From an uncultured Clostridia bacterium (GTDB taxonomy: Bacteria; Bacillota; Clostridia; Christensenellales; CAG-917), in contig CANQNC010000003.1 of the NCBI GenBank assembly GCA_947625145.1, forward strand, positions 31,754 through 95,753: a DNA stretch of 64,000 bases, in the 5' to 3' direction. A program made the position numbers and the translations under genes. Each line of letters opens with the position of its first letter. Position 1 is the stretch's first letter. Below are positions 1 through 19,387 of the stretch, in pieces. Below the pieces are notes generated by a model. That model made no database searches. It was not told the origin of the DNA and saw only the letters and a program-made list of their open reading frames with translations.

Positions 1-181
1 TCGCGCCGAAGTACGTGCCGAAGTCGTCCAAATACTCCGCGGGGCTGTCGAAGCCGAGCACGACGTCCACGGGCTCCCCGTTTTTGTCGGGGACGATCAA
101 CTTCAAAAGTCGCGCTCCGAAGTTGCACACCACCGCCTCGCATTTGCCGTTTGCAAGCCTAAGCGTTTGAAATTTGCTCAT
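1..181 (-). CDS. galM: aldose 1-epimerase (galactose mutarotase), N-terminal part; the gene runs off the left edge
   Basis: Own translation from ATG at 181-179: MSKFQTLRLANGKCEAVVCNFGARLLKLIVPDKNGEPVDVVLGFDSPAEYLDDFGTYFGA. This fits the conserved mutarotase N-terminus (VPDKNG..DVVLGFD....YFGA). A GGAGG RBS sits 8 nt upstream. Confidence 0.6.
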   Translation of the reverse strand, partial: MSKFQTLRLANGKCEAVVCNFGARLLKLIVPDKNGEPVDVVLGFDSPAEYLDDFGTYFGA

Positions 182-199
182 ATCCTCACCTCCTGCAAC

Positions 200-3100
200 T
201 TAGAGTTCGGGATCCGAGTCGTCCTGCAAAATTGCGAGGATGACGTTGATCATGTCGTTGAGCGCGTCCATTTTTGCCAAGTCCATTGCGGCGACGGGGA
301 TGAGATCGCAATGCTGTTTGTAGATCTTGTCCTTGACGGGATTGTACGTCCAACCGTCGCTGATGTGCGCCCTGACCCAACGCTGATGCTCTATGTTTGC
401 GAGGTGCGCCATGCGCAGATGCTTGGGTATCTTGTTGTCCTTAGATTCGGCGGAATATTTCCACTCGTTGGGGCTCTTAAAATTTTGATACGCTTCCTTG
501 ACGGCGCCGAGGTGTCCCGCAAAGATGGACGCGGAGCGGTTGGACTCCTTCGACCACATATCCAGCCCCGCCCAACTGCTTTCGATATGCTCGCTCTTGA
601 AGCATTTGAAGATGACTTCCAAAATGTTTTCGTCGCCGCCTATGTTTTCCTGCAAGTGATCCAACTCTATAAGTTTCATGAAGCTGTCCACCGCCGCCTC
701 GAGATCTTGTTCGGTCTTGGTATCCAAATTCAAAAATCCGATGAGGTCCTTGGTGTTTTGAGTGTTCACGCCGCGCAATGTGTTCAAAATTTGTACGCTT
801 ATGCAACTTATCCAGCCGTTCAGTTTCTCGCCGTTGCCGATCGCGGTCTCGTCGTCGCCGTGTTTGACAATCACGGCGTTCATGGACTTGTACAGGTCGT
901 TTTGCGCGTACATGCGGCCTTCATCCAACGCGCCGTACAGCTTGTTGTACATTTCGTTGAACACGGCTTCTTTTTTGTATTCGAGCACTTCGTCGTAGTT
1001 GAACACGTCCTTTCTGTTGCCCACGATGACTATCTTCAGATTGTTTTTGAGGCTTTCGAATGTGATCGAGCCGTCCATGGCCTTCGAGAGCATGCAATAG
1101 CCGTTGCCGTTCGGGTCCTCGCTGACCTTCAACAGCCCGTTGTTGCGCTCGTCCCAAATGTTGACGATGATCACCTGCTTACGCACAAATCTTTGCGTCT
1201 GCTCGTTGGTGTGCCCAAGCTCGCAACTGATATCCTGAATGACGGCGTTTGCGATCTGTATGTTTCTGAAATCGTCCCCCGTCGCGATCACCATGATGTC
1301 GGGAGACATATAGTTTGCCGCGTCCCGCATAAGCCGCACGGCGTCTATCTCGCCGCTTGCGCCGACCTCTTTCGCTTCGGTCGGCTTGCCAATGCTGTTC
1401 ATCTCCGCGCTGTGCTCTTTGCCCTCTTTGGGCGTTGCGACCGCGCCGTACATGCTGTCCGCGATCGCCTCGTTCAGCCTCGCGCCCGTCGCGGCGTCGA
1501 GCTCCTCGCAGAAGGACGCGTCCGTGCACGACACGTTGTTGAAAACGAATGCGGGGAAGCTCATCTCGCGCTTTGCCGCCGCCACAACGTCCTCTTTCAG
1601 CTTGCCGCCCTCCATAAAATCGGAATTGCGCTTGAGCGAGGACAGATATACATCCATGATCTTCTTCTTTGCGGCCTCCACGGCAAGCGTGATCTCGGCG
1701 TTTCTCTCCAACCTTTCGAGGCATCTGATCCTACGCTCTTTGGAATAGCCGCTCGGAAGATTTGTCACGTATTCGAGCTGAGACTTCTTTACGTCCTCGG
1801 GCAGAGGTTTGACGTCCTCTTTGCCCACGCACACAAACAGCGGATGGGTATAGGCAAACAGCCCCGAAGCGTTTCTTGCGTTCGCGTCGAAAACTTCCAC
1901 TCGCACCTGTTGCGCCTCTCTGTCCGCGTTGAGGTATGCGGATTGCACATACAACTCCTTTGCGATCGCCTGCCCTACCGAGCCGAAGCCGAGAGACCAT
2001 ATCAAAAGGTTGCGGCCGTAGTTGCCGAGATCCGCGTTGCCGTTCGGCTTTTGATCCAAAGATTTCAGCGCGGCGAACCTCGCGATGACGGGAGCGGGCT
2101 CGAAGAGGTTTACGCCCACGTGCCGCTGATATATCTTCTTGGCGTATTTCGCCATTTTTGCCTTTTTGGCGTCTCCCGCCGCGAGGATATGGATGTTTGT
2201 CTCCAACTTTTCCGCGAGCCTGTTGACAAACTCCTCGTTGCGCACGTTGTAGACTTGATAGTTTATGTCCCTCTTTGTCAGGATATAGTATTCTATCCTC
2301 AGTCCGTCGTCCTTGAAGTTGCGCTTGTCGTCCAGCATAAGCCTCACGCCGATGTCGTCGTAGACCGCGCTCTGATTTGCCTCTTCCTTTGTGACGTTGT
2401 TTTTTGCCACGCGCACGCTGCCCGTAGCCTCGTCCGTGATGACGCTGCTTTCCTCCGCAAACGCGAGCACGACAAATCTTTTGACGTTGGTTTCGGGGTC
2501 GAAGTCGGTTTTCTTCCTCTTTCTTTGCAAAGTTCCGTCCTTAAACACCTGCTTGACGTGGGTGATGGAAAAACTCTTCATCTTGATATACAGCTTGTCG
2601 AGAGTGTTGTTGAGCAGGGTCGCAAACGTGCGCGGATCCCTTTGGCACTCCTCCTCGGTCAGCTTCTTTTTGAACACGTAGGCTTTCAGATACAGCTTGA
2701 AAGCGGATATCGCGTCCGCAATGCGCTGTCTAACGCCCGCCTTTTCCGAGCGTGGAGCGCGCTCGTGGATGGCGTTGTGGTTGTTTATCCTCAGTTTTTT
2801 CGCGATGCTCTTGCCGTTTGAGTTGGAATAGGAATAATACAGGAAGCCCGCCGCCATAGCGTCCACGCACAGCTCGTTTTTCTTGTCGAAAGGCTCGAGT
2901 TCTGGCCCCGCAAACACGATGAGCGGTTTGAAATAGTGCTTGTTGGCGTTTTGTTGATACTCCTCTTTTATGGAGTTTGCAAGGGTGAGGCTCTCCTCGT
3001 TCAGCGCGGTGAACACAAAGATATCCTTGTGCCTCTCGCTTCCCAACAGCTTCAGCATTGAATAAAATTCATAGCTCGCGCTTGTGGAGATGATGCTGAC

Positions 3101-3571
3101 AAACAGCAACGCGGTCAGCACGGACGAGCCGTAAAGCAAGGACGCCAGCAACATGCCCTCGGCTTCCCCCACGCCCTCGAAGGTGAGGCCGCCTATCCCG
3201 CCGTACATAGCTTCCAAAAACGCGACGAACCGCGCGTCGAAGTTGTTCTCGAAGCCCGCGGCTTGATAATAGGCGACAAATTTGATGATTATGCTTGCGA
3301 CAAGCGCCGCGCCGATGAAGGCGACTTCCACCGCCCATTTGGAATACGGCTTTTTGCTGCGCACTTTGAAGTACAGCAGCATTATCACAAAATATATCCC
3401 CAAAATGATCGCGATCGCCGCTATGACGGCAAGCGCGGAATCCAAGTGTTTCACAGAGGACAGCGTGTTCAAAACCTGTTCGCCGAACGCCTTGTCCGCA
3501 TGGCCCGCAATCATCAGCGAAAGGCTCAACGCCGCCGACAGCACGCAGACGATCATAAGTGTTGTGATCAT
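200..3571 (-). CDS. large membrane protein of unknown function: channel-like 4-TM N-terminus, RCK/TrkA-N-like Rossmann domains and a C-terminal RyR-like domain
   Basis: 1123-aa ORF starting at ATG 3571 with RBS GGGAGGATGAGG. There are four N-terminal hydrophobic helices, with a Gly-rich segment (FVAFLEAMYGGIGGLTFEGVGEAEG) between helices 3 and 4. Helix 4 is followed by ERHKDIFVFTALNEESLTLANSI, positioned like an RCK domain start. The central Rossmann fold shows LIWSLGFGSVGQAIAKEL..VEVFD..DIMVIATGDDFRNIQIA. The C-terminus LANIEHQRWVRAHISDGWTYNPVKDKIYKQHCDLIPV matches the RyR-repeat core (He.W....GWtYGp.rD...k.HP.L). Confidence 0.85.
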   Translation of the reverse strand: MITTLMIVCVLSAALSLSLMIAGHADKAFGEQVLNTLSSVKHLDSALAVIAAIAIILGIYFVIMLLYFKVRSKKPYSKWAVEVAFIGAALVASIIIKFVAYYQAAGFENNFDARFVAFLEAMYGGIGGLTFEGVGEAEGMLLASLLYGSSVLTALLFVSIISTSASYEFYSMLKLLGSERHKDIFVFTALNEESLTLANSIKEEYQQNANKHYFKPLIVFAGPELEPFDKKNELCVDAMAAGFLYYSYSNSNGKSIAKKLRINNHNAIHERAPRSEKAGVRQRIADAISAFKLYLKAYVFKKKLTEEECQRDPRTFATLLNNTLDKLYIKMKSFSITHVKQVFKDGTLQRKRKKTDFDPETNVKRFVVLAFAEESSVITDEATGSVRVAKNNVTKEEANQSAVYDDIGVRLMLDDKRNFKDDGLRIEYYILTKRDINYQVYNVRNEEFVNRLAEKLETNIHILAAGDAKKAKMAKYAKKIYQRHVGVNLFEPAPVIARFAALKSLDQKPNGNADLGNYGRNLLIWSLGFGSVGQAIAKELYVQSAYLNADREAQQVRVEVFDANARNASGLFAYTHPLFVCVGKEDVKPLPEDVKKSQLEYVTNLPSGYSKERRIRCLERLERNAEITLAVEAAKKKIMDVYLSSLKRNSDFMEGGKLKEDVVAAAKREMSFPAFVFNNVSCTDASFCEELDAATGARLNEAIADSMYGAVATPKEGKEHSAEMNSIGKPTEAKEVGASGEIDAVRLMRDAANYMSPDIMVIATGDDFRNIQIANAVIQDISCELGHTNEQTQRFVRKQVIIVNIWDERNNGLLKVSEDPNGNGYCMLSKAMDGSITFESLKNNLKIVIVGNRKDVFNYDEVLEYKKEAVFNEMYNKLYGALDEGRMYAQNDLYKSMNAVIVKHGDDETAIGNGEKLNGWISCISVQILNTLRGVNTQNTKDLIGFLNLDTKTEQDLEAAVDSFMKLIELDHLQENIGGDENILEVIFKCFKSEHIESSWAGLDMWSKESNRSASIFAGHLGAVKEAYQNFKSPNEWKYSAESKDNKIPKHLRMAHLANIEHQRWVRAHISDGWTYNPVKDKIYKQHCDLIPVAAMDLAKMDALNDMINVILAILQDDSDPEL

Positions 3572-3697: not shown

Positions 3698-5344
3698 TCA
3701 TCTTTTCACGATCCCGAACCCGTTTCTCAGCACAAGCCACAGCGCGTCGTCCATCAGCTGATAGTCGTACTTTATGACGTCCGTTTCCGCCTCGGTCTTG
3801 CCAAGCCACTCCGCTTTAAGCCGCCTGTAAGTCAAAAGCCCGTCGTAGGTGGTCAGGTTTGCGTGCTTGCGTTCTTTCAGCATTTCCGCCTTGCTTTTGA
3901 GCCTGATATCCTCGATTGACGCGGGAACAAACCCCATGCTCATCATGTAGGCGTTCCACCTGTCGTGCTCCTGCATCGCGAGGATGTTCCGCACCGTCCC
4001 TCGGCGGAAGAGGCAATCGCCGTAATCCACGACGCCCTTGCCGTTAATCATCTCTCCCGTGTACACGATCTCGTCCCCCGCCGCATACGCTCTCGAAAAC
4101 TCCTCGCGTGCGTCGAGGTCGCCCTCTCCTCTTACAAGGTCTAAGCCCATCAGCTGAAACTTCATCTTGAGGCTCAGACACGCATAGACGTTGGAGTCTC
4201 TCTGCGCCTGTTTAGAGGCGCCGTACCAATCCGCGATCGCCTTGCGGAAAAGGGATATCTCCTCGTCCCTGTTCTTCGGCGCCCCCGAATATTCGAGGGA
4301 ATAGCAGAAGTGTCTGTCCTTTGCCATCAGCTCGAAGGAGGAGTTCACGATCCTGTCGAAGCAAAAGCTCTCGTCCTCGAAGCCGAAGCCTATGACCTCG
4401 CCGCATTCTCCCCTCTTCTTCTGCCTTGCAAACACATGGACGTTGCCCTTGCCCTTAAACCTCTTCGCCAGTTCGGAAGCGACGGACAAGTTTTCCTCGT
4501 CCTCGCCCATGTCCACAACGATCATGCAATATCCGCCCAAATCGAGCGCGTCGAGGCTGTTTATATATATCTCCTCCGAGGGCATATCGGGCAGGGGAAG
4601 ATACTCGTCTTTGTGCGCGACAAGCTCGCCGTACATGGCGTTGTAGCGCAAAAAGTATTCCGAATTTGCGCCTTTTTCAGAATGGTTTTTGTCGTATATC
4701 CAATATTTTATGGTCTTTTCCCGCACTTCGCCGTCCACAAGCGTCATAAGCTGACTGTTTGCCACAAGCGCAAGATACAGCTCCTTTTGCCTCTCGCCGA
4801 AGCCCACAAGAGCCACATTTATGTCCGCGTCCTGCCTGACGGTCGCGGTGGAGACGTCAAGCTCTCTCTCCCCCATAAACTCGGTTATGGGATAATTTGC
4901 GATGAAGTCCATGGCGGCAAGCCTAGGCGCGTCTATGGCGTGCAACCTGCCCCCCGTCGCCTCCACAAAAGGCTCGAGCTCCTCGGTGGAGCCCAAAACG
5001 TAGCAATGCAACCCTCTCGGCTCCCTCAAAGACAAATCGCAAGGTTCGGTCTTTGAAGCGCGCTCGGCAAATCGCCTTGCAAACTCGACGTTCAGCCGTT
5101 TGTCGTCAAACACGACGATCAACCTTGTCAGCCTGTCCGAAACCTGTCCGAACAAGTCGAACATGGCGTCCGCGTCCGTGACGTCGGGCACTTCCACGCC
5201 GTTTGCATGCGGACGCGCGGCGTCGCAAAGCAAGATCGCCTTGCCGCGCGAAGAGGAAGCGACCATGGCGGCGTTTTTGTCGCCGATCACAAGATCGAAG
5301 CCGTTTTTTTCGACATATCTCTTCAAATCTTCCCAATCGGTCAT
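3698..5344 (-). CDS. soluble TrkA-N-like Rossmann protein with a C-terminal RyR-like domain (paralog of 200-3571; function unknown)
   Basis: 548-aa ORF starting at ATG 5344 with a GGAG RBS. The Rossmann-like region reads INVALVGFGERQKELYLAL...YCMIVVDMGEDEENLSVASELA. The segment QAQRDSNVYACLSLKMKFQLMGL parallels SKESNRSASIFAGHLGAV in the neighbouring protein. The C-terminus ILAMQEHDRWNAYMMSMGF...KHANLTTYDGL...DVIKYDYQLMDDALWLVLRNGF is RyR-like with an insertion. Confidence 0.8.
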   Translation of the reverse strand: MTDWEDLKRYVEKNGFDLVIGDKNAAMVASSSRGKAILLCDAARPHANGVEVPDVTDADAMFDLFGQVSDRLTRLIVVFDDKRLNVEFARRFAERASKTEPCDLSLREPRGLHCYVLGSTEELEPFVEATGGRLHAIDAPRLAAMDFIANYPITEFMGERELDVSTATVRQDADINVALVGFGERQKELYLALVANSQLMTLVDGEVREKTIKYWIYDKNHSEKGANSEYFLRYNAMYGELVAHKDEYLPLPDMPSEEIYINSLDALDLGGYCMIVVDMGEDEENLSVASELAKRFKGKGNVHVFARQKKRGECGEVIGFGFEDESFCFDRIVNSSFELMAKDRHFCYSLEYSGAPKNRDEEISLFRKAIADWYGASKQAQRDSNVYACLSLKMKFQLMGLDLVRGEGDLDAREEFSRAYAAGDEIVYTGEMINGKGVVDYGDCLFRRGTVRNILAMQEHDRWNAYMMSMGFVPASIEDIRLKSKAEMLKERKHANLTTYDGLLTYRRLKAEWLGKTEAETDVIKYDYQLMDDALWLVLRNGFGIVKR

Positions 5345-5369: not shown

Positions 5370-7523
5370 TTACAACAGCCCCATTGCGCGCACGATATAC
5401 ATGATGATGCTTGCAAGGTTCGCCAATCCGAGGAAGGCTACGCCCACGCGCGTCACATACCTCGTTGCAAAGCACAGCGCGATCGCCGAAGCGAAGCCTA
5501 TCGAGGACAGCATCAGCGCAAGCTCGGTCAGCCCCATCGAATACAGCCCCTGCAAGCAACAGCCCGCCGCCGTCAGTGCCAGAAGCCCCGCCGCCAAGAC
5601 GAATTTTCTGCGAAGTTCGTCGGACAGCAAGCACACGATCGCCCCAAACGCGACGGGACAGATCGCCCCTATCGCAAACTGCCATTGATAAATGGACGCG
5701 TCCATGTCGAAGAGCACAGGCATCGCGATCGCAAACGCGAGATGCGCCGCCGCGAGGACGATATAACTCGTCCCGTCCGCCACGCTGAACTCCTTGACGA
5801 CCATGACGCCCGTCGATATCAAATACACCGCCGTCGCGACGCTCATCGCGCAACCTATGGCGGCATAATCCTCGAGATACACCCCCGTCAGCGCGGCGTT
5901 GGCGACCGTGATCGCAAACGCGGAAGCGACGGAAAACGCCTTGTTGTAATTCAGATAGAACAGCGTGTCTATGCTCTTGAACAGCGTAAATCCAAACGTC
6001 GCGCCCGCCGCGCAAAGCAATTGCGTCTCGCAGGAACGAGCGTCGAACACGTCCAATCCCTCCGCGACCGCAAGCATGACGTTTGCCACCGCAAACAAAA
6101 AGTAGTAAACGAAGTTTTCCCTGTGTCTGTACGCGCGTTTGCACGAAAACGCCGCAAACACAGTCGCCATCACGGCGATACACGTGTGGAAAGGCAGTCC
6201 CGCCCAGCCGAAGTCCTGCCCGAAAGCGTACGCCATAAGCCCCGCAAAGGACAGCCCCGACAGCAACATCATGGTTATGTTGGACGCGTCCTCTTTTGTG
6301 GACGGGGACAGCCGCATGCCGTGCACCGCGGTCAGCAATATGCCGATAGTGATCAAGGACAGCGCAATGCCGAACCCTAGATAGAAGAGGGAACGGTCGC
6401 TCGTACTCGTCACCATAAAAACATACGAAAACAGCAATCCCAAACTTCCGAGAATGAAGAATATGCCCGAAACTCCCACAAGCGGAGACCTTACGACAAA
6501 CGCCTTTATGCTTCCGATCAGCGCGAAAAACGCGACCACGACCGAGCAGGATATGCTGATGGACAACAGGTTTGTTGCCGCCACGTTCACGCTTTCGGAC
6601 TCTTCGCCCGAATTGAACAGACCTATCACCGCGCCTAGGCATATCACCGTAAACGCCGCAAAAACGCTGTTCGCGACGCCGAGTTGCAACGCGCCCACCC
6701 TCTTCTTGCCGAGGAAGAGGATGCACACCGAGATCGCGCTCACCACGTACGCGCAAATTATTGACGAATAGCCGAACGCGGTGACGGGATTTGCGCGATA
6801 CTCCAAGCACCTTATGACAAGCACCGCGGTCAGCGCGCTCAAAATCAGCACGAGCGCGACTATCTTCAAAACGTTCAGTGCCCTGCTCGCCCTGTACGAC
6901 AGAGTGCGGGCGGGACGAGATTCTCTCTCCCCTCTTCTCGACTCCGCGGCGGCGCGGCGATCTTCTCTGCGTTCTCTCGCCCTATCGCGCGCTGCCCTGA
7001 ATTCCGCGCCCCGACCTATCCCCGCTCTTCTCGCTCTCCTTGCAAGCCTGACGGGATGGTGGGCGGGCGCTTCCGAAGCCGCGTATGCGGGCGCCGCAGG
7101 CGTGGACTCCGCGTGTGCGGAAGGGGAAGTTGACGTCGCAGAGGCAGTAGGCGCCGCGGGTATGGGAGCCGAGGATGTCGGTTCAAAGTACGTGGCGGCA
7201 GATGCCGCATATGCGGGCGCGGCGGGAGGCGCTATGGGCGCCGCGGACGGCGGGGCAACGGGAGCCACAGGTTCGGGCTCTTCCTCCGCCGCCATATACT
7301 GTTGCCTTTGCAACGCTCTTGCCTCGTCCGCCTCTCTTTGAGCCTCGGCGCGTCTTGCGATCTCCTCTTCTCTCAGCCTTTCTATCTCGCGAAGCGCGGC
7401 GTCGGATTCGGGCATAAGAGAAAAAGACTCGGAAGCGGACAATCTTTCCCTTCCGCCGCAGACCACGCACACCGAATCGGAATCTCGGTTTTCGTTTCCA
7501 CAATTTCTACAAACCCAAGACAT
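5370..7523 (-). CDS. zinc-ribbon protein with a disordered Ala/Pro/Arg-rich linker and a large polytopic membrane domain (unknown function)
   Basis: 717-aa ORF. The N-terminus MSWVCRNCGNENRDSDSVCVVCG is a CxxC..CxxC zinc ribbon. It is followed by a charged coiled segment (EIERLREEEIARRAEAQREADEARA), a PA-rich low-complexity tract and an Arg-rich tract. About 16 hydrophobic helices then run to the C-terminus. Confidence 0.8.
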   Translation of the reverse strand: MSWVCRNCGNENRDSDSVCVVCGGRERLSASESFSLMPESDAALREIERLREEEIARRAEAQREADEARALQRQQYMAAEEEPEPVAPVAPPSAAPIAPPAAPAYAASAATYFEPTSSAPIPAAPTASATSTSPSAHAESTPAAPAYAASEAPAHHPVRLARRARRAGIGRGAEFRAARDRARERREDRRAAAESRRGERESRPARTLSYRASRALNVLKIVALVLILSALTAVLVIRCLEYRANPVTAFGYSSIICAYVVSAISVCILFLGKKRVGALQLGVANSVFAAFTVICLGAVIGLFNSGEESESVNVAATNLLSISISCSVVVAFFALIGSIKAFVVRSPLVGVSGIFFILGSLGLLFSYVFMVTSTSDRSLFYLGFGIALSLITIGILLTAVHGMRLSPSTKEDASNITMMLLSGLSFAGLMAYAFGQDFGWAGLPFHTCIAVMATVFAAFSCKRAYRHRENFVYYFLFAVANVMLAVAEGLDVFDARSCETQLLCAAGATFGFTLFKSIDTLFYLNYNKAFSVASAFAITVANAALTGVYLEDYAAIGCAMSVATAVYLISTGVMVVKEFSVADGTSYIVLAAAHLAFAIAMPVLFDMDASIYQWQFAIGAICPVAFGAIVCLLSDELRRKFVLAAGLLALTAAGCCLQGLYSMGLTELALMLSSIGFASAIALCFATRYVTRVGVAFLGLANLASIIMYIVRAMGLL

Positions 7524-7708: not shown

Positions 7709-7737
7709 ATTTTACAACACCGCGCCGCCTATGTCAA
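7709..7737 (-). promoter_or_regulatory. sigma-70-type promoter for the Zn-ribbon membrane gene and the two RyR-like genes
   Basis: The minus strand reads TTGACA-17 nt-TAAAAT (tgtcaa at 7732-7737, atttta at 7709-7714). This leaves a leader of about 180 nt before the ATG at 7523. Confidence 0.55.
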
Positions 7738-7859: not shown

Positions 7860-8798
7860 TTACAGGCGCTCCGCCTCGTCCGCAAGCGCGCGTATTGTCG
7901 CCGCTCTGCTGCCCTGTCCGACCGCCTTGAAGTCCCAACCCGAGCCGTTTCTGAACGCCTTGCCTATGATGATGCCCCTGTCCGAACTCACGTCGTTTTT
8001 GACATGATATTCAACAAGCACTTGGCGCGTCGTGGGCTCGTAAAGGCGTATGTACATGTTGCGCACGTCGCCCAGAGTTTGCCCCCTCTCGACGGAGGAG
8101 TAAATGTTGATGAGGAAGTAGATCTTGTTGAAAGAGGACGGCACTTTGTCAAGATAGACGTCAATGTTTTCGTCGTCCTGATTTCCGCCCTTGTCCGCGC
8201 CCGTGAGGTTGTCGCCGTGGTGCGTCACGCAGCCGTACTTGCTGTTGAGGTTGCCGAAGTACACGATCTCTTGTTCGGAAGATCCCGACAGCACGACTGT
8301 GGAATCGACGTCCATATTCGAACCCGTGCTTGCGGGGTCCCAGCCCACGCCCACATAGATGCGTTTGAGGTCGCTTCCGTCGGGCAGTTTGATGCTTACA
8401 ACGTCGCCCTGTTCAAGCTGCACGGTGTCCGAAGCTCCGAAGCGGCCCGTCGCGCCTGTGACGGGGATTCGATTTGCGCTTGCCGCGGGCACGTCCGCCG
8501 TCGCTCCGCATGCGGGACATTTGGCGTTGTGGATCGCTCTGCCGTCATAGCATATGAATCTCTTGCACGCGCCGCATTGATACACAAACTTGTTGCCGCA
8601 ATGTTTGCACCCCGTCCTCTTGAAGGAATCCCCGATCACGAGGTTTGGGGCGAGCGCCTCGCTGCTGACCGTCGCGGTCTCTCCCGAGATAGCATAGCTT
8701 CCGCCGAGCGCCGCCTCCGAGCCGTTGATGACAAACTGCATGCCAAGCGGTTTTTTCTTTGTGGAGCACGCGCCGAGTTTGGTGATGATCTTTGACAT
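7860..8798 (-). CDS. TerD-domain protein with an N-terminal Cys-rich (double zinc-knuckle) extension
   Basis: I trimmed the start to ATG 8798, which has a GGAGGT RBS; the track start at 8813 is TTG. The C-terminal half has TerD hallmarks: VGVGWDP...DVDSTVVL...VYFGNL...HHGDNLTGADKGGNQDDENIDVYLDKVP...IYFLINIY. Upstream lies CKHCGNKFVYQCGACKRFICYDGRAIHNAKCPACG. Confidence 0.85.
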   Translation of the reverse strand: MSKIITKLGACSTKKKPLGMQFVINGSEAALGGSYAISGETATVSSEALAPNLVIGDSFKRTGCKHCGNKFVYQCGACKRFICYDGRAIHNAKCPACGATADVPAASANRIPVTGATGRFGASDTVQLEQGDVVSIKLPDGSDLKRIYVGVGWDPASTGSNMDVDSTVVLSGSSEQEIVYFGNLNSKYGCVTHHGDNLTGADKGGNQDDENIDVYLDKVPSSFNKIYFLINIYSSVERGQTLGDVRNMYIRLYEPTTRQVLVEYHVKNDVSSDRGIIIGKAFRNGSGWDFKAVGQGSRAATIRALADEAERL

Positions 8799-8850
8799 AT
8801 TGACCTCCGACAATGTATTTTCTTATTTTATCCTATTAAGGAGCACCGAT

Positions 8851-9162: not shown

Positions 9163-10971
9163 TCAGTTTTTCTTTGCTTTTCTATCCCTTCTTTTGAGGC
9201 GTTTTTCATCCTTGATTTGCACCTGCGGAGTCTCTGTTTGCGGGTCACGGTTTGCCTTACGCAAAGGCTTCAAAGGAAGATGAAGTTTGTCGGGCAAGAG
9301 CTTTGTTTTCTTCACGACGACCACTTCCTGCGAATCCTTGTCGGACGACATATAAAGCGCTGTCTCCCCTATCTCCCATTCCTTTCCGTCGGGATCGAAC
9401 CAATACACTTTTTTGCTGCGACGGCGGAACATGACGCCCACGACCTCTATGCCGTTTTCGTCGTATTCCTCCTCTTCAATCGGTTGAGTTTCCTCTTCCC
9501 CTGCGGGCGCCTCGCTCTCCGTTTCGTTCACAGGCGCCTCGCGCGTCTCGTTTGCTTGCTCTGTCTCGACGACTTGTTCGGGCTCTTGCTCAGGCTCTTG
9601 CTCGGGCTCTTCCTCAAACGCGGGATTTTCTTCCTCGGCTTCAGGCATATCCTCTGCCGTTGCCTCTTCATCAGTCTCGGAAGTCCCCTCTTCCGCAGTC
9701 CCTGCCTCGGACTCCGACTCTTCCTCGGACTCTTCTTTGTCTTCATCCTCGACTGCGAATTCTTCCACCGCGACTTCTTCCGTTTCGTCCTCGGCGACAG
9801 GCTCTCCGACTTCTTCCTCGGTCTTTTCTTCCTCGACCTCGGGTTCGCCGACATCTTCTTCCTCCGCAAATTCTTCTGCGGGGACTTCGTCGGACGCGGA
9901 TTCAACCTCAACTGTTTCTTCCTCAACAGATCCTTCTTCGAAAGGCTCTTCCTCTTCAAAAGCCGCTTCCCCTTCTTCAACGGGAGCGACGGTCTCGTCC
10001 GAGGTCTCCTCTGCAACTTCCGTGACAGTTTTCGTGACAGTTTCTTCGGTGACTTCCGCGGCGGCTTCTTCGGCGATATCTTGCGGAGCCGTATCCTCGC
10101 TCTCCACATATATGCGCTTGATGAGGCCCTTTTCGATAAGCGCCTCGGTATCCTCGTAAGGCAGATAGAAATCTTCCTCCGCACGCTCCTTACGCTCTAT
10201 CCCCCGCGCGCTCATCACTGCGGCGATAAGTTCCGCGGCATATCTCACGCGCCGCTCGTTTTTAAGGCGATACATGCAAGGCGTGTCGGCATAAGTGGAA
10301 TATTCCGAGACGTCCTCGACCTTGTATTTGCTTTCCGCATATGACGCGGGGTCGAGAGGCAGATATATGCACAGCGTGTTGCCGCGATATCTGAAGCGGG
10401 CGACCTTTATCCTGCCCATGCGGAAGGTCTCGCGTTTCCAGCTCATCCGCGCCTTGACCTTTTTGTAGGAGAGGAGTTGGTTTTTGAGCTTTGCGTACCA
10501 CGCTTTGACCTCGTCGCCGGATTGGATGAGTTTGGCGGTGAAGCTCTTGTTGTACAGCACTCCGTCCCCCTCAAACAGCAATGCGGAAGCGGGGACGGTT
10601 ACGATCGGACGTTCCGTCTTTGCTTGCTCCGCTTGCCCCTCGGGCTGTTCGGTTTCCGCTTGCATTTCATGCTCGGCGGGCTGTTCTTGGGCATCATATC
10701 CCGCAGGCTGTTGCTCGACGTCGCTTATCTCCGCTTGCGCCGCCGTCTCTTCCGCTTCGGGCGCTTGTTCCGCAAGCGCTCCGCCCATCCGAGCGGGGAC
10801 TGCGCCGACAGCCTCTCGTCTACGGCGCGAGACCGACACGGCGACGACGATCGTAAGAACAATGGCGGCAAGCGTAAGCACGACCGCGACGATGCAGATC
10901 GCAAACAGGATGATGCCTTCCGTCCCGTTCATAAAAAACGTATTGTCAAAGAAAGATTTGATTGCCGACAT
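9163..10971 (-). CDS. signal-anchored protein with a conserved-looking central domain and a long Glu-rich acidic tract (unknown function)
   Basis: 602-aa ORF starting at ATG 10971. It has an N-terminal TM helix (GIILFAICIVAVVLTLAAIVLTIVVAV). The central region reads YNKSFTAKLIQSGDEVKAWYAKLKNQLLSYKKVKARMSWKRETFRMGRIKVARFRYRGNTLCIYLPLDP...YKVEDVS. An E/T/A-rich tract of about 200 aa follows. The C-terminal beta-like module is VVGVMFRRRSKKVYWFDPDGKEWEIGE. Confidence 0.75.
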   Translation of the reverse strand: MSAIKSFFDNTFFMNGTEGIILFAICIVAVVLTLAAIVLTIVVAVSVSRRRREAVGAVPARMGGALAEQAPEAEETAAQAEISDVEQQPAGYDAQEQPAEHEMQAETEQPEGQAEQAKTERPIVTVPASALLFEGDGVLYNKSFTAKLIQSGDEVKAWYAKLKNQLLSYKKVKARMSWKRETFRMGRIKVARFRYRGNTLCIYLPLDPASYAESKYKVEDVSEYSTYADTPCMYRLKNERRVRYAAELIAAVMSARGIERKERAEEDFYLPYEDTEALIEKGLIKRIYVESEDTAPQDIAEEAAAEVTEETVTKTVTEVAEETSDETVAPVEEGEAAFEEEEPFEEGSVEEETVEVESASDEVPAEEFAEEEDVGEPEVEEEKTEEEVGEPVAEDETEEVAVEEFAVEDEDKEESEEESESEAGTAEEGTSETDEEATAEDMPEAEEENPAFEEEPEQEPEQEPEQVVETEQANETREAPVNETESEAPAGEEETQPIEEEEYDENGIEVVGVMFRRRSKKVYWFDPDGKEWEIGETALYMSSDKDSQEVVVVKKTKLLPDKLHLPLKPLRKANRDPQTETPQVQIKDEKRLKRRDRKAKKN

Positions 10972-16229: not shown

Positions 16230-17477
16230 TCAAAGCGTTGCGTAAACTTTTTTCAGCTTGGCAAATCTCGGCAATCCCTCCTCAAGAGGCGCCTTTGCGT
16301 CCCCTTGGATCAGAGGCAACGCATACTTGATGAATTCGTCGCTGACGTATGACCCGTCGTTGGTTATCCACTCAAGAGGAACTTTCTTTTCGGTGTTGGC
16401 GGCAAGTTCGAGGGGCATCAGCACGTTTTTGCAGACGTAGTTGCCGTCCTTGTCGTACGCCCTTTCGAAAATGACCATCTTGTCCGTCTCGCCCTCGCAC
16501 GCGCACTTGACGGCGAACGCCCCCGCATTGAAGGCTTCCTCGACGTCCGTCTTTGAGGCGAGGTGCGCGCCGCAGCGTTGCATGAGGCTGAGCTCGATGG
16601 GCCTGACCTTCACTCCGAGCCTTGTCTTGACTAGGTTTGCAAGCACTTGCGCAAGCCCGCCTAGCTGAGCGTGTCCGAAGCTGTCGTTTGCGGACGCTTC
16701 CGCCTCCGCGACATACTTCCCTTCGAGGTTTTTGATGCCCTCGGACACCGCGACAATGCACTTGTTGTCGTTTTTCTCGCACACGTTTTTGACTGCGGCG
16801 AGGAACTTTTCGGTGTCAAACGGGACCTCGGGAAGATAGATGAGGTCCGCCCCCAAGCCCTTGTAGCCCGCCAAAGCCGCGGCGGCTGTCAGCCAGCCCG
16901 CGTTGCGCCCCATGATCTCCATGATGCACACGCAGCCGAAGTTGTAGACCTTTGCGTCGAGGTTGCACTCCATGATGGTGTTTGCGATATACTTTGCCGC
17001 GCTTGCGTACCCCGGGCAATGGTCGGTGCCGTAAAGGTCGTTGTCAATGGTTTTGGGCACGCCTATGACGTTGCACTCATACCCCACGGATTGCAGATAT
17101 TTGCTGATCTTGTTGCAGGTGTCCATGCTGTCGTTGCCGCCGTTGTAGAAGAAATAGCGGATGTTGTACTTTTCAAACACCTCGAGGATGCGCCTGTAGT
17201 CCGAATCGTCCACGCTTGCGTCCTTAAGTTTGTATCTCGCCGAGCCGAGCGCCGAGGACGGCGTATACTTCAACAACTCTATCTCCTTGGGATCTTCCTT
17301 GGAAATGTCGAAGAATTTTTCGTTGAGGATACCCACGATCCCGTGCTCCGCGCCGTAGACCGCCGTAATATTGCCCTGCTTGAGCGCCTCGGTGAAAACG
17401 CCTGCCGCGCTGCTGTTGATGACGGAAGTCGGACCGCCCGACTGCCCGAACATGCATGCTCCCTTCAAATTTTTCAT
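16230..17477 (-). CDS. pfp: long-form phosphofructokinase, probably PPi-dependent (diphosphate--fructose-6-phosphate 1-phosphotransferase)
   Basis: 415 aa with FGQSGGPTSVINSS, NGGNDSMDT and VIGVPKTIDND. The Lys is where ATP-PFKs carry Gly. Confidence 0.75.
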   Translation of the reverse strand: MKNLKGACMFGQSGGPTSVINSSAAGVFTEALKQGNITAVYGAEHGIVGILNEKFFDISKEDPKEIELLKYTPSSALGSARYKLKDASVDDSDYRRILEVFEKYNIRYFFYNGGNDSMDTCNKISKYLQSVGYECNVIGVPKTIDNDLYGTDHCPGYASAAKYIANTIMECNLDAKVYNFGCVCIMEIMGRNAGWLTAAAALAGYKGLGADLIYLPEVPFDTEKFLAAVKNVCEKNDNKCIVAVSEGIKNLEGKYVAEAEASANDSFGHAQLGGLAQVLANLVKTRLGVKVRPIELSLMQRCGAHLASKTDVEEAFNAGAFAVKCACEGETDKMVIFERAYDKDGNYVCKNVLMPLELAANTEKKVPLEWITNDGSYVSDEFIKYALPLIQGDAKAPLEEGLPRFAKLKKVYATL

Positions 17478-18273: not shown

Positions 18274-18309
18274 GTTGACAACGCATAGCGCCAAATAGCG
18301 CGGTTTTAC
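18181..18309. repeat. complete 129-bp repeat element with 19-bp terminal inverted repeats (copy E1)
   Basis: The left end gtaaaaccgcgatatttgg (18181-18199) and right end ccaaatagcgcggttttac (18291-18309) are complementary in 18 of 19 positions. The internal hairpin spans 18216-18274 (CAGCCCTCTCCC...GGGAGAGGGCTG). Confidence 0.8.
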
Positions 18310-19289
18310 TTGCTGATGACGATGGCAAGATCATACAACTTCTGATCAAACTCCTTCGGCAAGGACAGCGCCTCCGCCACGGTGGTGTCGTAGATATCGC
18401 CGCCGCGGACGCCGACGACTCTGCCCGACTGACCGCACTGAATGAGGTCAACGGCGCGCTGAGCCATGCGGGAGGCGAGGACGCGATCGGACATGGTGGG
18501 ATTGCCGCCGCGTTGCATATAGCCAAGCGCCATATGGTTTACGCGGCGATTGGTTTCCGCCGCCACTTTTTGCAAAAGCTCGTCCTTCAAATAGTTTTTG
18601 CCCTCGGCGAGCAAGATGATGGTGGACGTCTTGCCCTTGTCGAAGCCGCGCTTCACGCTTTTTGCGATCTCGTCCACGTCCGCGGGGGCTTCGGGGACGA
18701 TGACATATTCCGCGCCGCCCGCCACGGCAGAGTTGAGCGCGATGTTGCCGCTCATCCTGCCCATGACCTCGAGGATCATGATGCGGTCGTGAGAAGTGAT
18801 GGTGTCGCGCAGTTTCAAGATGGCGTCTATGACGGTGTTGCAAGCGGTGTCGAAGCCTATGGTGTAGTCCGTATAGCCCATGTCGTTGTCAATGGTGCCG
18901 GGGATGCCGATGACGTTCAGTTCGGTGAAATCGTGAATGTCCTGCACTCCCCTGAACGAGCCGTCGCCGCCTATGACTATCAAATTTTCTATGCCTCTGT
19001 TGAGGAGGTTGTCCACCGCCTTTTTCATGACTTCCTTGTCCTTGAACTCGGGGCAACGGGAAGTGCGCAGAATGGTGCCGCCCGCGTGCACGCAGTTGGA
19101 CACGGAGGAATAGGGCATGGGGATTATCTCATCGCGGACGAGCCCGGAATAGCCGTGGCGCACGCCGTACATTTCAAAGCCCTGCGCCATGCCGTAGCGC
19201 ACGACTGTCCTGATGCACGCATTCATGCCCGAGGCGTCTCCGCCCGAGGTGAGCACTGCCAATTTGTTGTTTTTCAAAGTCTTTGCCAT
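18306..19289 (-). CDS. pfkA: ATP-dependent 6-phosphofructokinase
   Basis: I trimmed the start to ATG 19289 (MAKTLKNNKLAVLTSGGDASGMNA), which has a GGAG RBS. Motifs are VIGGDGSFRG, GIPGTIDND and MGR. The stop TAA at 18306-18308 lies inside the repeat terminus. Confidence 0.9.
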   Translation of the reverse strand: MAKTLKNNKLAVLTSGGDASGMNACIRTVVRYGMAQGFEMYGVRHGYSGLVRDEIIPMPYSSVSNCVHAGGTILRTSRCPEFKDKEVMKKAVDNLLNRGIENLIVIGGDGSFRGVQDIHDFTELNVIGIPGTIDNDMGYTDYTIGFDTACNTVIDAILKLRDTITSHDRIMILEVMGRMSGNIALNSAVAGGAEYVIVPEAPADVDEIAKSVKRGFDKGKTSTIILLAEGKNYLKDELLQKVAAETNRRVNHMALGYMQRGGNPTMSDRVLASRMAQRAVDLIQCGQSGRVVGVRGGDIYDTTVAEALSLPKEFDQKLYDLAIVISK

Positions 19290-19387
19290 AAAATTCTCCA
19301 TAAGGCCAAAAGCCGATCGTTTTGTGGGGGACGCGCACAAGCCCGTCCGATTGCTATTATATCACAATTTTTGCCATCTTCAACAGT

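Follow-up and report, generated by a model that had tools for sequence, protein, structure and literature searches.

In MthK and related 2TM P-loop RCK channels (GsuK and Kch; TrkA/KtrA are separate subunits) an outer helix, a helix-loop and an inner helix lead to a cytoplasmic α/β domain, and soluble RCK subunits complete the MthK gating ring. We know of no RCK channel with a RyR domain. Single RyR/R12 repeats (PF02026) are found in RyDEP (mycobacteriophage DyoEdafos gp78, PDB 35TM) and in a B. thetaiotaomicron protein (3NRT/6UAG), both small soluble stand-alone domains of ~100-140 aa. RyDEP binds and cleaves 2'/3'cADPR using H-W-H-D residues; this ligand is bound by RyDEP and 6 of 8 homologues, and in RyR3 the equivalent residues make contact with adenine ligands (PMC13232231). 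Fusion of RyR domains to a cation channel has occurred twice in eukaryotes, in the ryanodine receptors and in the oomycete PKD-RyR (PKDRR) channels, the latter with repeats near the C-terminus (PMC4820453). TerY-P has been described as a switch in signalling with links to defence (PMC10542128); our literature search turned up no report that connects RyR domains to Ter genes.

Here we describe a membrane protein encoded in the window, the whole stretch of 64,000 nucleotides that was analysed (Table 1). We tentatively suggest that, as part of a family not described before, it forms one subunit of a cation channel regulated by nucleotides or else is a channel-like membrane effector. The word search gave 12 homologues, and the exhaustive HMMER search 232 clusters at E<=1e-3 (202 at E<=1e-10). 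The protein belongs to an unnamed family of ~230 members, counted as clusters at 50% identity. The family is rare, patchily distributed and confined to gut and rumen Firmicutes MAGs.

Table 1. Features of the target gene and its neighbourhood; positions are those of the window.
Feature	Residues	Position	Strand	Basis or remark
Target ORF, 1123 aa (membrane module, two α/β domains, helical region, RyR domain)		200..3571	minus	ATG start; stop codon included
Optional extra N-terminal hydrophobic helix	1-23	3503..3571	minus	hydropathy, alignment
TM-A	44-73	3353..3442	minus	AF2 model helix 2-31 (+42 = protein numbering)
TM-B, outer-helix equivalent	78-104	3260..3340	minus	AF2, conservation
Short amphipathic helix and acidic loop	111-139	3155..3241	minus	AF2, conservation, fold matches
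Long TM-C, inner-helix equivalent	140-181	3029..3154	minus	AF2, conservation
First α/β (Rossmann-like) domain, without GxGxxG	182-445	2237..3028	minus	AF2, conservation
Second α/β domain	515-860	992..2029	minus	alignments, hhalign, TrkA_N matches
Linker region	861-1040	452..991	minus	alignment
Single RyR (R12-type) repeat	1045-1117	221..439	minus	PF02026, PDB/profile matches
Partner gene (soluble product of 548 aa, paralogous to the target's cytoplasmic part)		3698..5344	minus	BLAST, hhalign
717-aa protein		5370..7523	minus	Zn_Ribbon_1 E 6e-4, TM segments
Promoter-like site TTGACA-17-TAAAAT		7709..7737	minus	upstream of 717-aa gene
317-aa protein, TerD domain and N-terminal Cys-rich TerY-C-like metal-binding region		7860..8813	minus	
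884-aa ORF, overlapping the target gene		167..2821	plus	

All peptides singled out in an earlier sequence-only reading are found in place in this ORF: FVAFLEAMYGGIGGLTFEGVGEAEG at residues 115-139, ERHKDIFVFTALNEESLTLANSI at 179-201, EHQRWVRAHISDGWTYNPVKDKIYKQHCDLIP at 1061-1092, GFGSVG at 528-533 and VEVFD ending at D562. They are more than chance, since homologues exist and these motifs are the conserved ones. Among 156 representatives G127 is conserved in 89%, F131 in 93%, E132 in 84% and G133 in 93%; an alignment of 45 members shows no variation at G528, F529, D767, N775, E1061, R1064, W1065, H1087 and D1106.

The elements follow one another as that reading proposed: helix, short helix with a Gly/acidic loop, long helix, α/β domain, GxGxxG...D domain, RyR domain. 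Its 2TM layout is wrong. Hydropathy and AF2 give four hydrophobic helices (~1-23, 44-73, 78-104 and 140-165), the first of which is missing from most family members, whose sequences mostly begin just before the next helix in the alignment; the family core is three TM helices and one short helix-loop. In the AF2 model covering residues 43-182 (pLDDT 94.1, pTM 0.82), TM-A and TM-B are followed by a short helix, which a loop of 10 residues joins to the long TM-C. TM-A, with Y67 99% conserved, is followed by a basic cytoplasmic loop (R71, K72-74, K78), and TM-B carries E82 (95%) and K/R97 (90%). Residues 111-129 form the short amphipathic helix and 130-139 the acidic loop (AF2 H69-87 and loop 88-97; pLDDT ~88-95), with the family signature Y123-x-x-I-G-G-L-T-F-E132-G-L, which is the best-conserved element of the membrane module among the 156 representatives. 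TM-C, with conserved Y146, G148, Y152, G/A154 and then S166-Y167-E168-x-Y-S171, continues into the cytoplasm, where the first α/β domain begins ~17 residues after the membrane. From the charge distribution, the positive-inside rule places the loop outside and the α/β domains inside, and residues 111-139, the pore-helix/filter-like element, are predicted to be at the extracytoplasmic side. We note that the short helix has 19 residues, which exceeds the typical length of a pore helix, and that the conserved GG lies within the predicted helix; this counts against a pore, as does TM-A, which is extra to a canonical pore domain.

The nearest folds to the TM-only model are channel pores. P-loop cation channels of at least 10 subfamilies, including NaK, KcsA, MthK, Kv, K2P, MloK1, HCN and AMPA receptors, make up 38 of its 50 best Foldseek matches in the PDB, and in two libraries the best matches are mostly tetrameric P-loop cation channels. 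NaK superposes with a TM-score of 0.50-0.51 (rmsd 5.6 Å over 97 columns) and TREK-2 with an rmsd of 4.8 Å; in the viral library, which is independent of the PDB, a putative K+ channel from Tupanvirus ranks first (TM-score 0.50). None of these matches reaches significance (the lowest E is 0.36 for the PDB and 0.34 for the viral library; TM-scores ~0.4-0.5). For the 1-445 model the best PDB match is MthK, a protein with both a pore and an RCK domain, at a weak E of 0.013 (probability 0.92). At the profile level, Ion_trans and Ion_trans_2 (Pfam) match none of the 45 family members even at E<=10, a PDB profile search with the membrane module gives 0 matches at E<=10, and hhalign of the module against a pore alignment reaches 0.1-0.4%. 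This last negative carries little weight, because accepted distant P-loop relationships, those of NavAb and of RyR/IP3R to K+ channels, go undetected by it too. The channel-like interpretation is partly supported: there is a helix-loop between two TM helices with channel-dominated matches, but each match is non-significant, and the sequence and profile methods give no link to channels. It survives two findings named at the outset as able to refute it, a missing pore helix and a match to a non-channel anchor family: the helix-loop is modelled, and residues 1-180 gave no match to a membrane family other than channels. Unlike MthK-type channels, the protein has IGGLTFEGL instead of TVGYG or any K+-type filter, as had been anticipated, has two extra TM helices (the family has one), and shows no Ion_trans_2 or significant TrkA_N match and no profile-level similarity.

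The first α/β domain consists of β/α elements (pLDDT 82-86 for residues 180-250) with conserved T188, F220, G222, F228, D229 and C235, and has an insertion at ~268-360 that is unique to the target among 12 aligned sequences. The second, as in MthK-type channels, has a GxGxxG...D motif, the dinucleotide-binding signature G528-F-G-S-V-G533...D562, followed by conserved T764-G-D-D767...N775. This second Rossmann motif had been recognised correctly; the assignment to RCK has not been established. Against KTN/RCK, hhalign gives 0.2% for the first domain, with no KTN profile match, and 18.5% over 18 columns for the second, covering the generic GxGxxG (β1-αA) only, and TrkA_N matches 3 of 45 family members faintly (best E 0.016). 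The second domain is possibly, though not provenly, KTN/RCK-like. The linker region, poorly conserved except for W1006, S1010 and N1011, is probably helical.

That the C-terminus is a RyR domain is solid and bears out the earlier assignment. The target matches PF02026 at E 8.8e-5 (23.1 bits, below the gathering score of 27.4) and the B. thetaiotaomicron RyR 6uag at 7.5e-5; the family profile of this part matches 4n05/3nrt at 4-5e-9, RyR2 at 6e-8 and RyDEP 35tm at 3e-5. RyDEP H75/W78/H100/D117 align with H1062/W1065/H1087/D1106, and both families, that of the target and that of the partner, conserve these equivalents. Unlike in RyDEP, the repeat makes up the final 7% of a 1123-aa membrane protein, for which binding or hydrolysis of a cADPR isomer is putative. 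Ryanodine receptors and PKDRR channels likewise join a P-loop-type cation pore, here predicted, to cytoplasmic RyR repeats, in PKDRR also near the C-terminus; the eukaryotic pore modules are 6TM and their repeats come in tandem, against 3-4 TM helices and a single repeat in the target. No homology is detectable between the pore regions, and the fusion is probably independent of the eukaryotic ones. A likeness of GGIG to the RyR filter GGGIGD was rejected (hhalign 11%, aligned elsewhere).

The partner gene recalls the soluble RCK subunits of MthK. Its product has α/β domains and a divergent RyR-like repeat with H460, W463, H494 and D527; hydropathy shows no hydrophobic segment, and the membrane module is missing. 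BLAST matches it to the genes upstream of homologues in loci L001, L002, L004 and L005 (E 1e-92 to 1e-114), hhalign aligns the target and partner families at 98.5% (E 2e-15, 481 columns), and such a paralogue lies upstream of the target homologue in 10 of ~20 distinct loci. Separated from the partner gene by 25 nt, the 717-aa gene is probably co-transcribed with it and the target; its product has an N-terminal zinc ribbon, an Ala/Pro/Glu-rich low-complexity stretch and then at least 12 TM helices, and its relatives adjoin TerD in L001, L006 and L021. The promoter-like site matches the consensus in 11 of 12 positions, such sites overall being not above shuffled expectation in the region, and is a possible start of a three-gene operon. 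As in Ter systems, a TerD gene lies nearby, three genes upstream of the target (PF02342 E 6.9e-43; TerY_C E 4.4e-5, below cutoff); the target family is, however, not a described Ter component. The sequence-only reading had mentioned neither the partner, nor the TerD/Ter-type context, nor the fact that the RyR domain keeps its nucleotide-binding residues.

We suggest the following mechanism. The last two of the three core TM helices would flank the re-entrant helix and acidic loop (IGGLTFEGL) at the outer membrane face. In an oligomer, presumably a tetramer, the helix-loops would line the pore, with E132 as an acidic ring favouring cations. The long inner helix would lead straight into the two cytoplasmic α/β domains, the second with the dinucleotide-binding signature. 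The H-W-H-D pocket of the RyR/R12 domain may bind an adenine-containing ligand, ADPR-like or a cyclic ADPR isomer, and pore gating would follow from the ligand binding to the cytoplasmic assembly. The soluble paralogue probably supplies a second domain set, as soluble RCK subunits do in the MthK gating ring. The lone RyR repeat would have to pair into a two-fold R12 module, presumably by dimerising as RyDEP does (PMC13232231). The system frequently, though not invariably, sits within stress/conflict modules (TerD and the TerY-P signalling triad, ClpP-like pairs, TraG-like ATPases). The analysis itself establishes the gene, its family and pattern of conservation, the predicted fold, the RyR domain with its ligand residues, the relation of the partner as a paralogue and the neighbouring genes; we infer the oligomeric state, ion conduction, the ion passed, the ligand, heteromer formation and the physiological role. 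If the protein works as a channel, it would be a bacterial ligand-gated channel with the pairing seen in animal ryanodine receptors.

Somewhat unlikely, in our estimate, is that the protein acts not as a channel but as a nucleotide sensor or enzyme anchored in the membrane. The three-helix module would then be an anchor only, the outer loop perhaps sensing an external cue or metal, and the Rossmann-like and RyR domains would bind, sequester or hydrolyse an ADPR-type or nucleoside-like signal, like RyDEP, with output to the paralogue, ClpP-like proteases, TraG-like ATPases or TerD. The best-conserved motif of the N-terminal 180 residues lies in the inter-TM helix-loop, which is unexpected for a simple anchor; the conserved Gly/small residues in TM-C and the intramembrane E82 and K/R97 point beyond anchoring, and the confident fold (pLDDT 94) has channel pore domains as nearest neighbours in two libraries. 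These matches are nevertheless non-significant and without sequence-level link to any channel family, and the full RyDEP catalytic dyad and binding residues (H, W, H, D) are conserved (PMC13232231). Moreover, ~85% of the target (~940 residues) is cytoplasmic, and partner-family members with a different membrane anchor or none retain the cytoplasmic domains, suggesting that the conserved business end is there.

We consider it improbable that the protein serves an anti-phage or conflict system as an effector that disrupts the membrane, in which a nucleotide alarm at the RyR/Rossmann domains would open a non-selective pore, collapse the membrane potential and stop growth (abortive infection), as opposed to a physiological selective channel. 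Conflict-type neighbours, though variable between loci, do recur beside homologues: ClpP-like pairs, TraG/VirD4-like ATPases, an AAA+/M41 protease, and in L001, L006 and L021 the order (vWA)-PP2C-kinase-TerD-Zn-ribbon membrane protein, then the target homologue. The Ter association is, however, optional (4 of ~20 distinct loci), and several members occur singly between housekeeping genes, so the protein is self-sufficient, as expected of a fused sensor and effector. Thoeris-type cADPR signals are recognised by RyR domains (PMC13232231), and the patchy rarity of the family would suit a conflict system, but no signal-producing enzyme (TIR, CD-NTase) was seen in any locus examined; the lack of one for an ADPR-type signal, such as a TIR protein, also counts against the nucleotide-regulated channel. 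PADLOC gives a weak PDC-S18 match in a gene 5 kb upstream of the target and none for the target, partner, TerD or Zn-ribbon protein; from ~13.7 kb core genes follow (DnaE, WhiA, PFK), and no mobile-element genes were seen in the window.

Finally, that a spurious or decaying ORF merely looks pore-like through a hydrophobic N-terminus and a Gly-rich stretch is highly improbable: the MthK comparison came from a sequence-only reading, and the 884-aa ORF that overlaps the gene in antisense shows how easily long ORFs arise in this sequence, but this is effectively refuted by the 232 homologous clusters with conserved full-length architecture, the motif conservation of 84-99%, the 45-member alignment, the conserved synteny with the paralogue and a good start codon with a Shine-Dalgarno-like GGGAGGA ~9 nt 5' of the ATG. 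The target ORF is real, and the 884-aa plus-strand ORF is taken for a putative antisense shadow ORF.

We tentatively read the target, the 1123-aa membrane protein with a C-terminal RyR domain, as a nucleotide-regulated cation channel or channel-like effector, which is the best supported of the readings considered. Here, the membrane would hold a P-loop-like pore whose loop, IGGLTFEG, is acidic. Gating would fall to a large assembly in the cytoplasm, which comprises the Rossmann-like domains and the RyR nucleotide pocket and is probably completed by a soluble 548-aa paralogue (the partner), encoded by the next gene upstream. On this reading the architecture would be of a known kind, the P-loop-type channel with cytoplasmic ligand-binding domains, with a new filter motif and a RyR sensor.

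The target gene is real. Its open reading frame is the one given by the sequence-only reading, starts with ATG and is preceded at about 9 nt by the Shine-Dalgarno sequence GGGAGGA; all peptides quoted in that reading were located at the expected places. An 884-aa ORF overlaps most of the gene on the opposite strand and is taken for an antisense shadow ORF, not a gene. The protein has no name in public sources. A word-indexed search found 12 relatives, and exhaustive HMMER with a profile of target residues 1-445 found 232 clusters at 50% identity with E<=1e-3 (202 with E<=1e-10), most of them 760-1500 aa long and with the layout of the target. All 15 loci from GTDB representative genomes belong to uncultured gut or rumen Firmicutes (Christensenellaceae, other Clostridia, Ca. 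Stercoripulliclostridium, Bacilli and Ca. Enteromonas).

According to hydropathy, the target has four hydrophobic helices (about 1-23, 45-68, 80-100 and 141-165); a Gly-rich, amphipathic segment separates the last two. The first helix is absent from most family members in the alignment; hence, the core consists of three TM helices (TM-A, TM-B and TM-C), and the 2TM layout proposed earlier does not hold. Among 156 representatives, Y67 is kept in 99% and E82 in 95%, and the positions of the loop motif Y123-x-x-I-G127-G-L-T-F131-E132-G133-L, between TM-B and TM-C, are kept at 84-93%. In the last helix Y146, G148 and G/A154 are among the most conserved membrane positions, and S166-Y167-E168-x-Y-S171 is conserved at its cytoplasmic end. 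The loop after TM-A is basic (R71, K72-74, K78) and the segment 105-139 is net-acidic; by the positive-inside rule, therefore, the helix-loop would be extracytoplasmic and the remaining protein would lie in the cytoplasm.

The first AF2 model, of residues 1-445 with a 10-sequence alignment, is of only moderate confidence (pLDDT 65.7). The second, of residues 43-182 with a 77-sequence alignment, is confident (pLDDT 94.1, pTM 0.82) and comprises helices 44-73, 78-104 and 111-129, the loop 130-139 and the long helix 140-181 (protein numbering). At the level of predicted structure, two TM helices thus flank a pore-helix-like short helix and a filter-like loop, whose re-entrance is suggested by the fold matches, and the best-conserved motif of the module lies where a filter would be expected. 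In the Foldseek search with this model, 38 of the 50 best PDB matches are tetrameric P-loop cation channels of many subfamilies, namely KCNQ1/2/4/5, Kv1.2/1.3/4.2, KcsA, TREK/TASK, NaK, MloK1, MthK, HCN1, AMPA receptors and TRPML2. None of the PDB matches is significant (best E 0.36, TM-scores at most ~0.51); NaK gives a TM-score of 0.50-0.51 with an rmsd of 5.6 A over 97 columns, and TREK-2 an rmsd of 4.8 A. In an independent viral library, a putative potassium channel of Tupanvirus ranks first (TM-score 0.50, rmsd 5.5 A), again with no significant match (best E 0.34), and EsV-1-223, which we take to be the Kesv K+ channel, is among the low-rmsd matches. With the 1-445 model, the best PDB match is MthK, a protein with a pore and an RCK domain (E 0.013, probability 0.92, 176 columns). 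The channel fold suggested by the sequence-only reading survives the refutation test which that reading set, with the helix-loop present in the confident model and P-loop channels dominating the fold matches. On balance, the module appears to have a P-loop pore-domain topology and predicted fold, plus one extra N-terminal helix.

The main rival of the channel reading is a membrane-anchored nucleotide sensor or enzyme without a pore, and it could appeal to the profile searches. Pfam Ion_trans and Ion_trans_2 have zero matches among 45 members even at E<=10, the TM profile has 0 matches among PDB sequences at E<=10, and hhalign of the family TM profile with the pore alignment gives 0.1-0.4%; 7 close relatives of MthK were all that a further homology search could add to the pore reference profile. 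NavAb and the RyR/IP3R pores are generally placed in one structural superfamily with K+ channels. In the same small-profile test against K+ channels, NaK reaches 98.2%, NavAb 0.1% and the RyR/IP3R pores 0.7%. The negative hhalign result therefore carries little weight, because the test also misses NavAb and the RyR/IP3R pores. Since hhalign lacks power at this distance, fold comparison is the proper level of evidence, and there the matches are mostly channels. The sequence-level negatives are uninformative here and do not tell against a channel. We give the pore-less protein a somewhat lower probability than the channel.

The expectation of a filter other than TVGYG is borne out: the family motif is Y-x-x-I-G-G-L-T-F-E-G-L, which holds no recognised filter signature (TVGYG, TVGDG, TLESW, GGGIGD and the like). 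Its T-F-E-G segment bears a loose likeness to T-L-E-S of bacterial Nav channels, which we take as a lead only. The identification of MYGGIGG with the RyR/IP3R filter GGGIGD was rejected: RyR1/IP3R1 pore sequences gave 11% in hhalign against the family TM profile, with TM-A aligned instead of the loop, and the family consensus at that loop is x-[GAT]-I-G-G, not GGIG. TerD is a Ca2+-binding fold. In the more specific and improbable proposal for the whole family given below, a ring of the conserved Glu (E132), together with TerD as an occasional neighbour, would suggest that the permeant ion is Ca2+ or some other divalent cation.

The inner helix 140-181 runs straight into the first alpha/beta domain in the AF2 prediction (strand 182-187, helix 192-207, strand 215-222; pLDDT 82-86 for residues 180-250 of the 1-445 model). 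This domain thus joins straight onto the end of the inner helix, as an RCK-like domain would; it is without GxGxxG and shows no similarity to the KTN profile (0.2% in hhalign). In the second domain G528-F-G-S-V-G533, followed by D562 where the next strand ends, and T764-G-D-D767, followed by N775 (also given as N770, in an xxDDxxN pattern), are invariant or nearly so. Dinucleotide-binding Rossmann folds typically show such a pattern, which also resembles that of KTN/RCK domains. Against a 5-sequence KTN alignment, hhalign gives 18.5% for the second domain over 18 columns only and 11.4% for the partner over 84 columns, and TrkA_N (PF02254) matches only 3 of the 45 members (best E 0.016). Hence, of the RCK domain and second Rossmann fold proposed earlier, the GFGSVG...D motif stands and the RCK membership is not established; the RCK/KTN identity of the two alpha/beta domains is unsupported, as is their origin by internal duplication (1.1% between them). 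The channel proposal as a whole keeps its layout, its non-K+ filter and its RyR domain, and loses the 2TM count, with the RCK identity unproven. The first alpha/beta domain of the target holds a ~95-residue insertion that is missing from the 11 family members aligned with it; long helices are predicted in the insertion with low confidence, and it makes the target one of the longest single-module family members.

RyR domains have long been seen as structural or protein-interaction modules. A preprint of May 2026 presents them as nucleotide pockets, which bind or cleave cyclic ADP-ribose immune signals, and suggests the same pocket in animal RyRs (PMC13232231). In the target the C-terminal RyR domain is confirmed by PF02026, by solved RyR repeats and by the family profile. 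The target alone matches PF02026 at E 8.8e-5 (23.1 bits, under the gathering score of 27.4), and in phmmer it matches solved RyR repeats in the PDB at E 2e-10 to 1e-4 (6uhi 2e-10, 6uag 7.5e-5). The family profile matches 6uhi at 3.5e-19, 4n05 (a B. thetaiotaomicron RyR protein) at 3.9e-9, RyR2 repeat 1-2 at 6e-8 and 35tm at 3e-5, and PF02026 is found in 32 of the 45 members at E<=10 and in 22 at E<=0.01. The last structure, 35tm, is RyDEP, mycobacteriophage DyoEdafos gp78, whose sequence was taken from MN234187.1 and aligned with MAFFT. RyDEP H75, W78, H100 and D117 correspond to target H1062, W1065, H1087 and D1106; the H-W-H-D set is kept in 10 of the 12 target-family sequences shown and in all 5 partner sequences, and across the 45-member alignment E1061, R1064, W1065, H1087 and D1106 do not vary. 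In RyDEP, H75 and D117 are catalytic, W78 forms a stacking contact with the adenine and H100 touches the phosphates. These residues are also the ones in contact with adenine ligands in human RyR3, and most tested RyDEP homologues with them bind cADPR-isomer signals without cleavage (PMC13232231). Since these residues align and are kept in target and partner, the C-terminal domain is very likely a pocket, as predicted from sequence, for an adenine nucleotide or ADPR-type ligand. However, RyDEP binds and cleaves 2'cADPR / 3'cADPR, whereas the likeness of the target to it is one of residue conservation only. Four long members, P0049, P0052 and P0053 (about 1500 aa) and the one of locus L019, have ~500 extra C-terminal residues; in the final ~105 residues of P0049 the H-W-H-D pocket is not kept, with Q/Y/S/A at those columns of the RyDEP alignment.

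The partner has no Pfam match. In four loci of the target family, L001, L002, L004 and L005, a homologue of the partner (E 1e-92 to 1e-114) lies directly upstream of the target's counterpart, and the same holds in 6 of the 15 GTDB loci, one of which, L008, is on the same contig as L002. Profile-profile comparison of the two families (98.5%, E 2e-15, 481 columns) shows them, at the sequence level, as paralogous across the whole cytoplasmic part. The pore-like element is carried by the target only, not by the partner, longer versions of which have their own N-terminal anchor, unrelated to the target module (0.19%). A heteromeric pore built from both proteins is unlikely, because the two membrane parts are not homologous. 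MthK has soluble RCK subunits, and a hetero-assembly of target and partner may reasonably be inferred by analogy, since a single RyR repeat must pair into a two-fold R12 unit; compare RyDEP, which pairs as a homodimer (PMC13232231).

A more specific proposal covers the whole family: a prokaryotic cation channel with its gate under a RyR/R12 domain, which would bind a cyclic-ADPR-type or related nucleoside signal in a hetero-oligomer with the soluble paralogue. Taken in full, we hold it to be improbable. If true, it would be the third case, and a bacterial one, of a P-loop pore combined with a RyR domain, and a small, tractable model for the long-debated cADPR link to ryanodine-receptor gating. 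Among eukaryotes, the reported occurrences of the RyR domain are limited to RyRs, oomycete PKD-RyR channels and one oomycete CaMK (PMC4820453). The sequence-only reading knew of no prokaryotic channel-like protein with a RyR domain, and our literature search on RyR domains with TerD, TrkA or prokaryotic channels likewise found no earlier description of this architecture. If the channel reading is right, the family would be the first bacterial case that we found of a RyR pocket fused in one chain to a channel-like module. Nucleotide-responsive conduction, if true, would offer a simple test system for how R12 couples ligand binding to a pore and a new bacterial ligand-gated channel class with a non-canonical acidic filter. 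It would also offer a candidate effector or sensor leading from Ter-type stress/defence signalling to membrane ion flux in abundant uncultured gut Firmicutes. Interest is raised by the recent demonstration that the RyR pocket recognises cADPR isomers, for which the target would be a compact bacterial test of R12-pore coupling (PMC13232231). Should the target turn out not to be a channel, the RyR nucleotide-signal family still gains a new, membrane-bound member whose paralogous partner is conserved.

The genes of the Zn-ribbon protein, the partner and the target are separated by gaps of 25 and 126 nt; these short gaps and the promoter-like site suggest that the three may form an operon. The vWA-PP2C-kinase set is known as the TerY-P triad (PMC10542128). 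It occurs with TerD and a Zn-ribbon polytopic membrane protein in loci L001, L006 and L021, and the window has TerD and the Zn-ribbon protein of that set. The remaining ~16 loci lack TerD, and in several of them the target gene stands by itself; since the Ter linkage is optional, the target is no core Ter component. Several family members stand alone beside housekeeping genes, which argues that the target protein is self-sufficient and only optionally linked to Ter-type or conflict-type modules. A third reading, in which the pore is kept and the protein is a lethal, non-selective defence effector, would suit such links, is less likely again than the pore-less one, and finds no PADLOC match in the four cluster genes (TerD, Zn-ribbon protein, partner, target). 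The TraG/VirD4-like coupling-protein ATPase adjoins the partner-target pair in five loci, and L008 shares that of L002 by their common contig; no further conjugation genes are in view. A ~302-aa protein without a Pfam match precedes the TraG-like gene in four of these five, and L019 has the TraG-like gene only, after an unrelated 287-aa ORF. Neither the ~302-aa nor the ~300-aa accessory protein is a relative of TerD (0.1% in hhalign for the former). L004 and L005 have two adjacent ClpP-like genes between partner and target homologue, L014 has a ClpP-like match across a similar stretch, and L019 a single one on the opposite strand; these genes may form a module for processing or regulation within the system. 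They encode ~175-180 aa each, shorter than canonical ClpP. L001 also carries an AAA+/M41 protease.

Positions of features in the window and in loci of target homologues
Feature	Sequence	Positions (strand)	Size or score
Antisense shadow ORF (putative)	window	167-2821 (+)	884 aa
Target	window	200-3571 (-)	1123 aa
Insertion, target residues about 268-360	window	2492-2770 (-)	~95 residues
Partner	window	3698-5344 (-)	548 aa
Zn-ribbon protein	window	5370-7523 (-)	717 aa
Promoter-like site upstream of Zn-ribbon gene	window	7737-7709	consensus match only
TerD fusion, three genes upstream of target	window	7860-8813 (-)	317 aa; TerD E 6.9e-43
Strong terminator-like hairpin after 602-aa gene	window	9158-9134	
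Acidic membrane protein	window	9163-10971 (-)	602 aa
Phosphofructokinase family	window	16230-17477 (-)	E 1.6e-62
Phosphofructokinase family	window	18306-19340 (-)	E 1.2e-101
ClpP-like	L004	8894-9976	
ClpP-like	L005	8902-9987	
ClpP-like	L014	8820-9902	
ClpP-like	L019	9072-9602	
TraG/VirD4-like ATPase	L002	1977-4733	
TraG/VirD4-like ATPase	L005	4404-7168	
TraG/VirD4-like ATPase	L010	4597-7325	
TraG/VirD4-like ATPase	L014	4322-7083	
TraG/VirD4-like ATPase	L019	15182-16987	
Long family member	L019	9692-14296	1534 aa

The Cys-rich N-terminal region of the TerD fusion shows a weak TerY-C metal-binding domain and several zinc-ribbon model matches. In the Zn-ribbon protein, the zinc ribbon lies at the N-terminus, a long low-complexity stretch rich in Ala, Pro and Glu comes next, and there are at least 12 TM helices; the Zn-ribbon and polytopic proteins that follow TerD in L001, L006 and L021 are similar by BLAST in the first ~30 residues only. 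The 602-aa protein has a single TM helix at its N-terminus and a very long acidic region rich in Glu, and its residues 141-260 weakly match the candidate defence family PDC-S18 of PADLOC (E 4e-6). The locus has no phage match and the window no tRNA. The window is ordinary chromosome, with tRNA methyltransferase, PFK, DnaE and WhiA from ~13.7 kb on. The two phosphofructokinase-family genes lie within 2 kb beside DnaE and are probably ATP-dependent and PPi-dependent paralogues, unrelated to the target finding.
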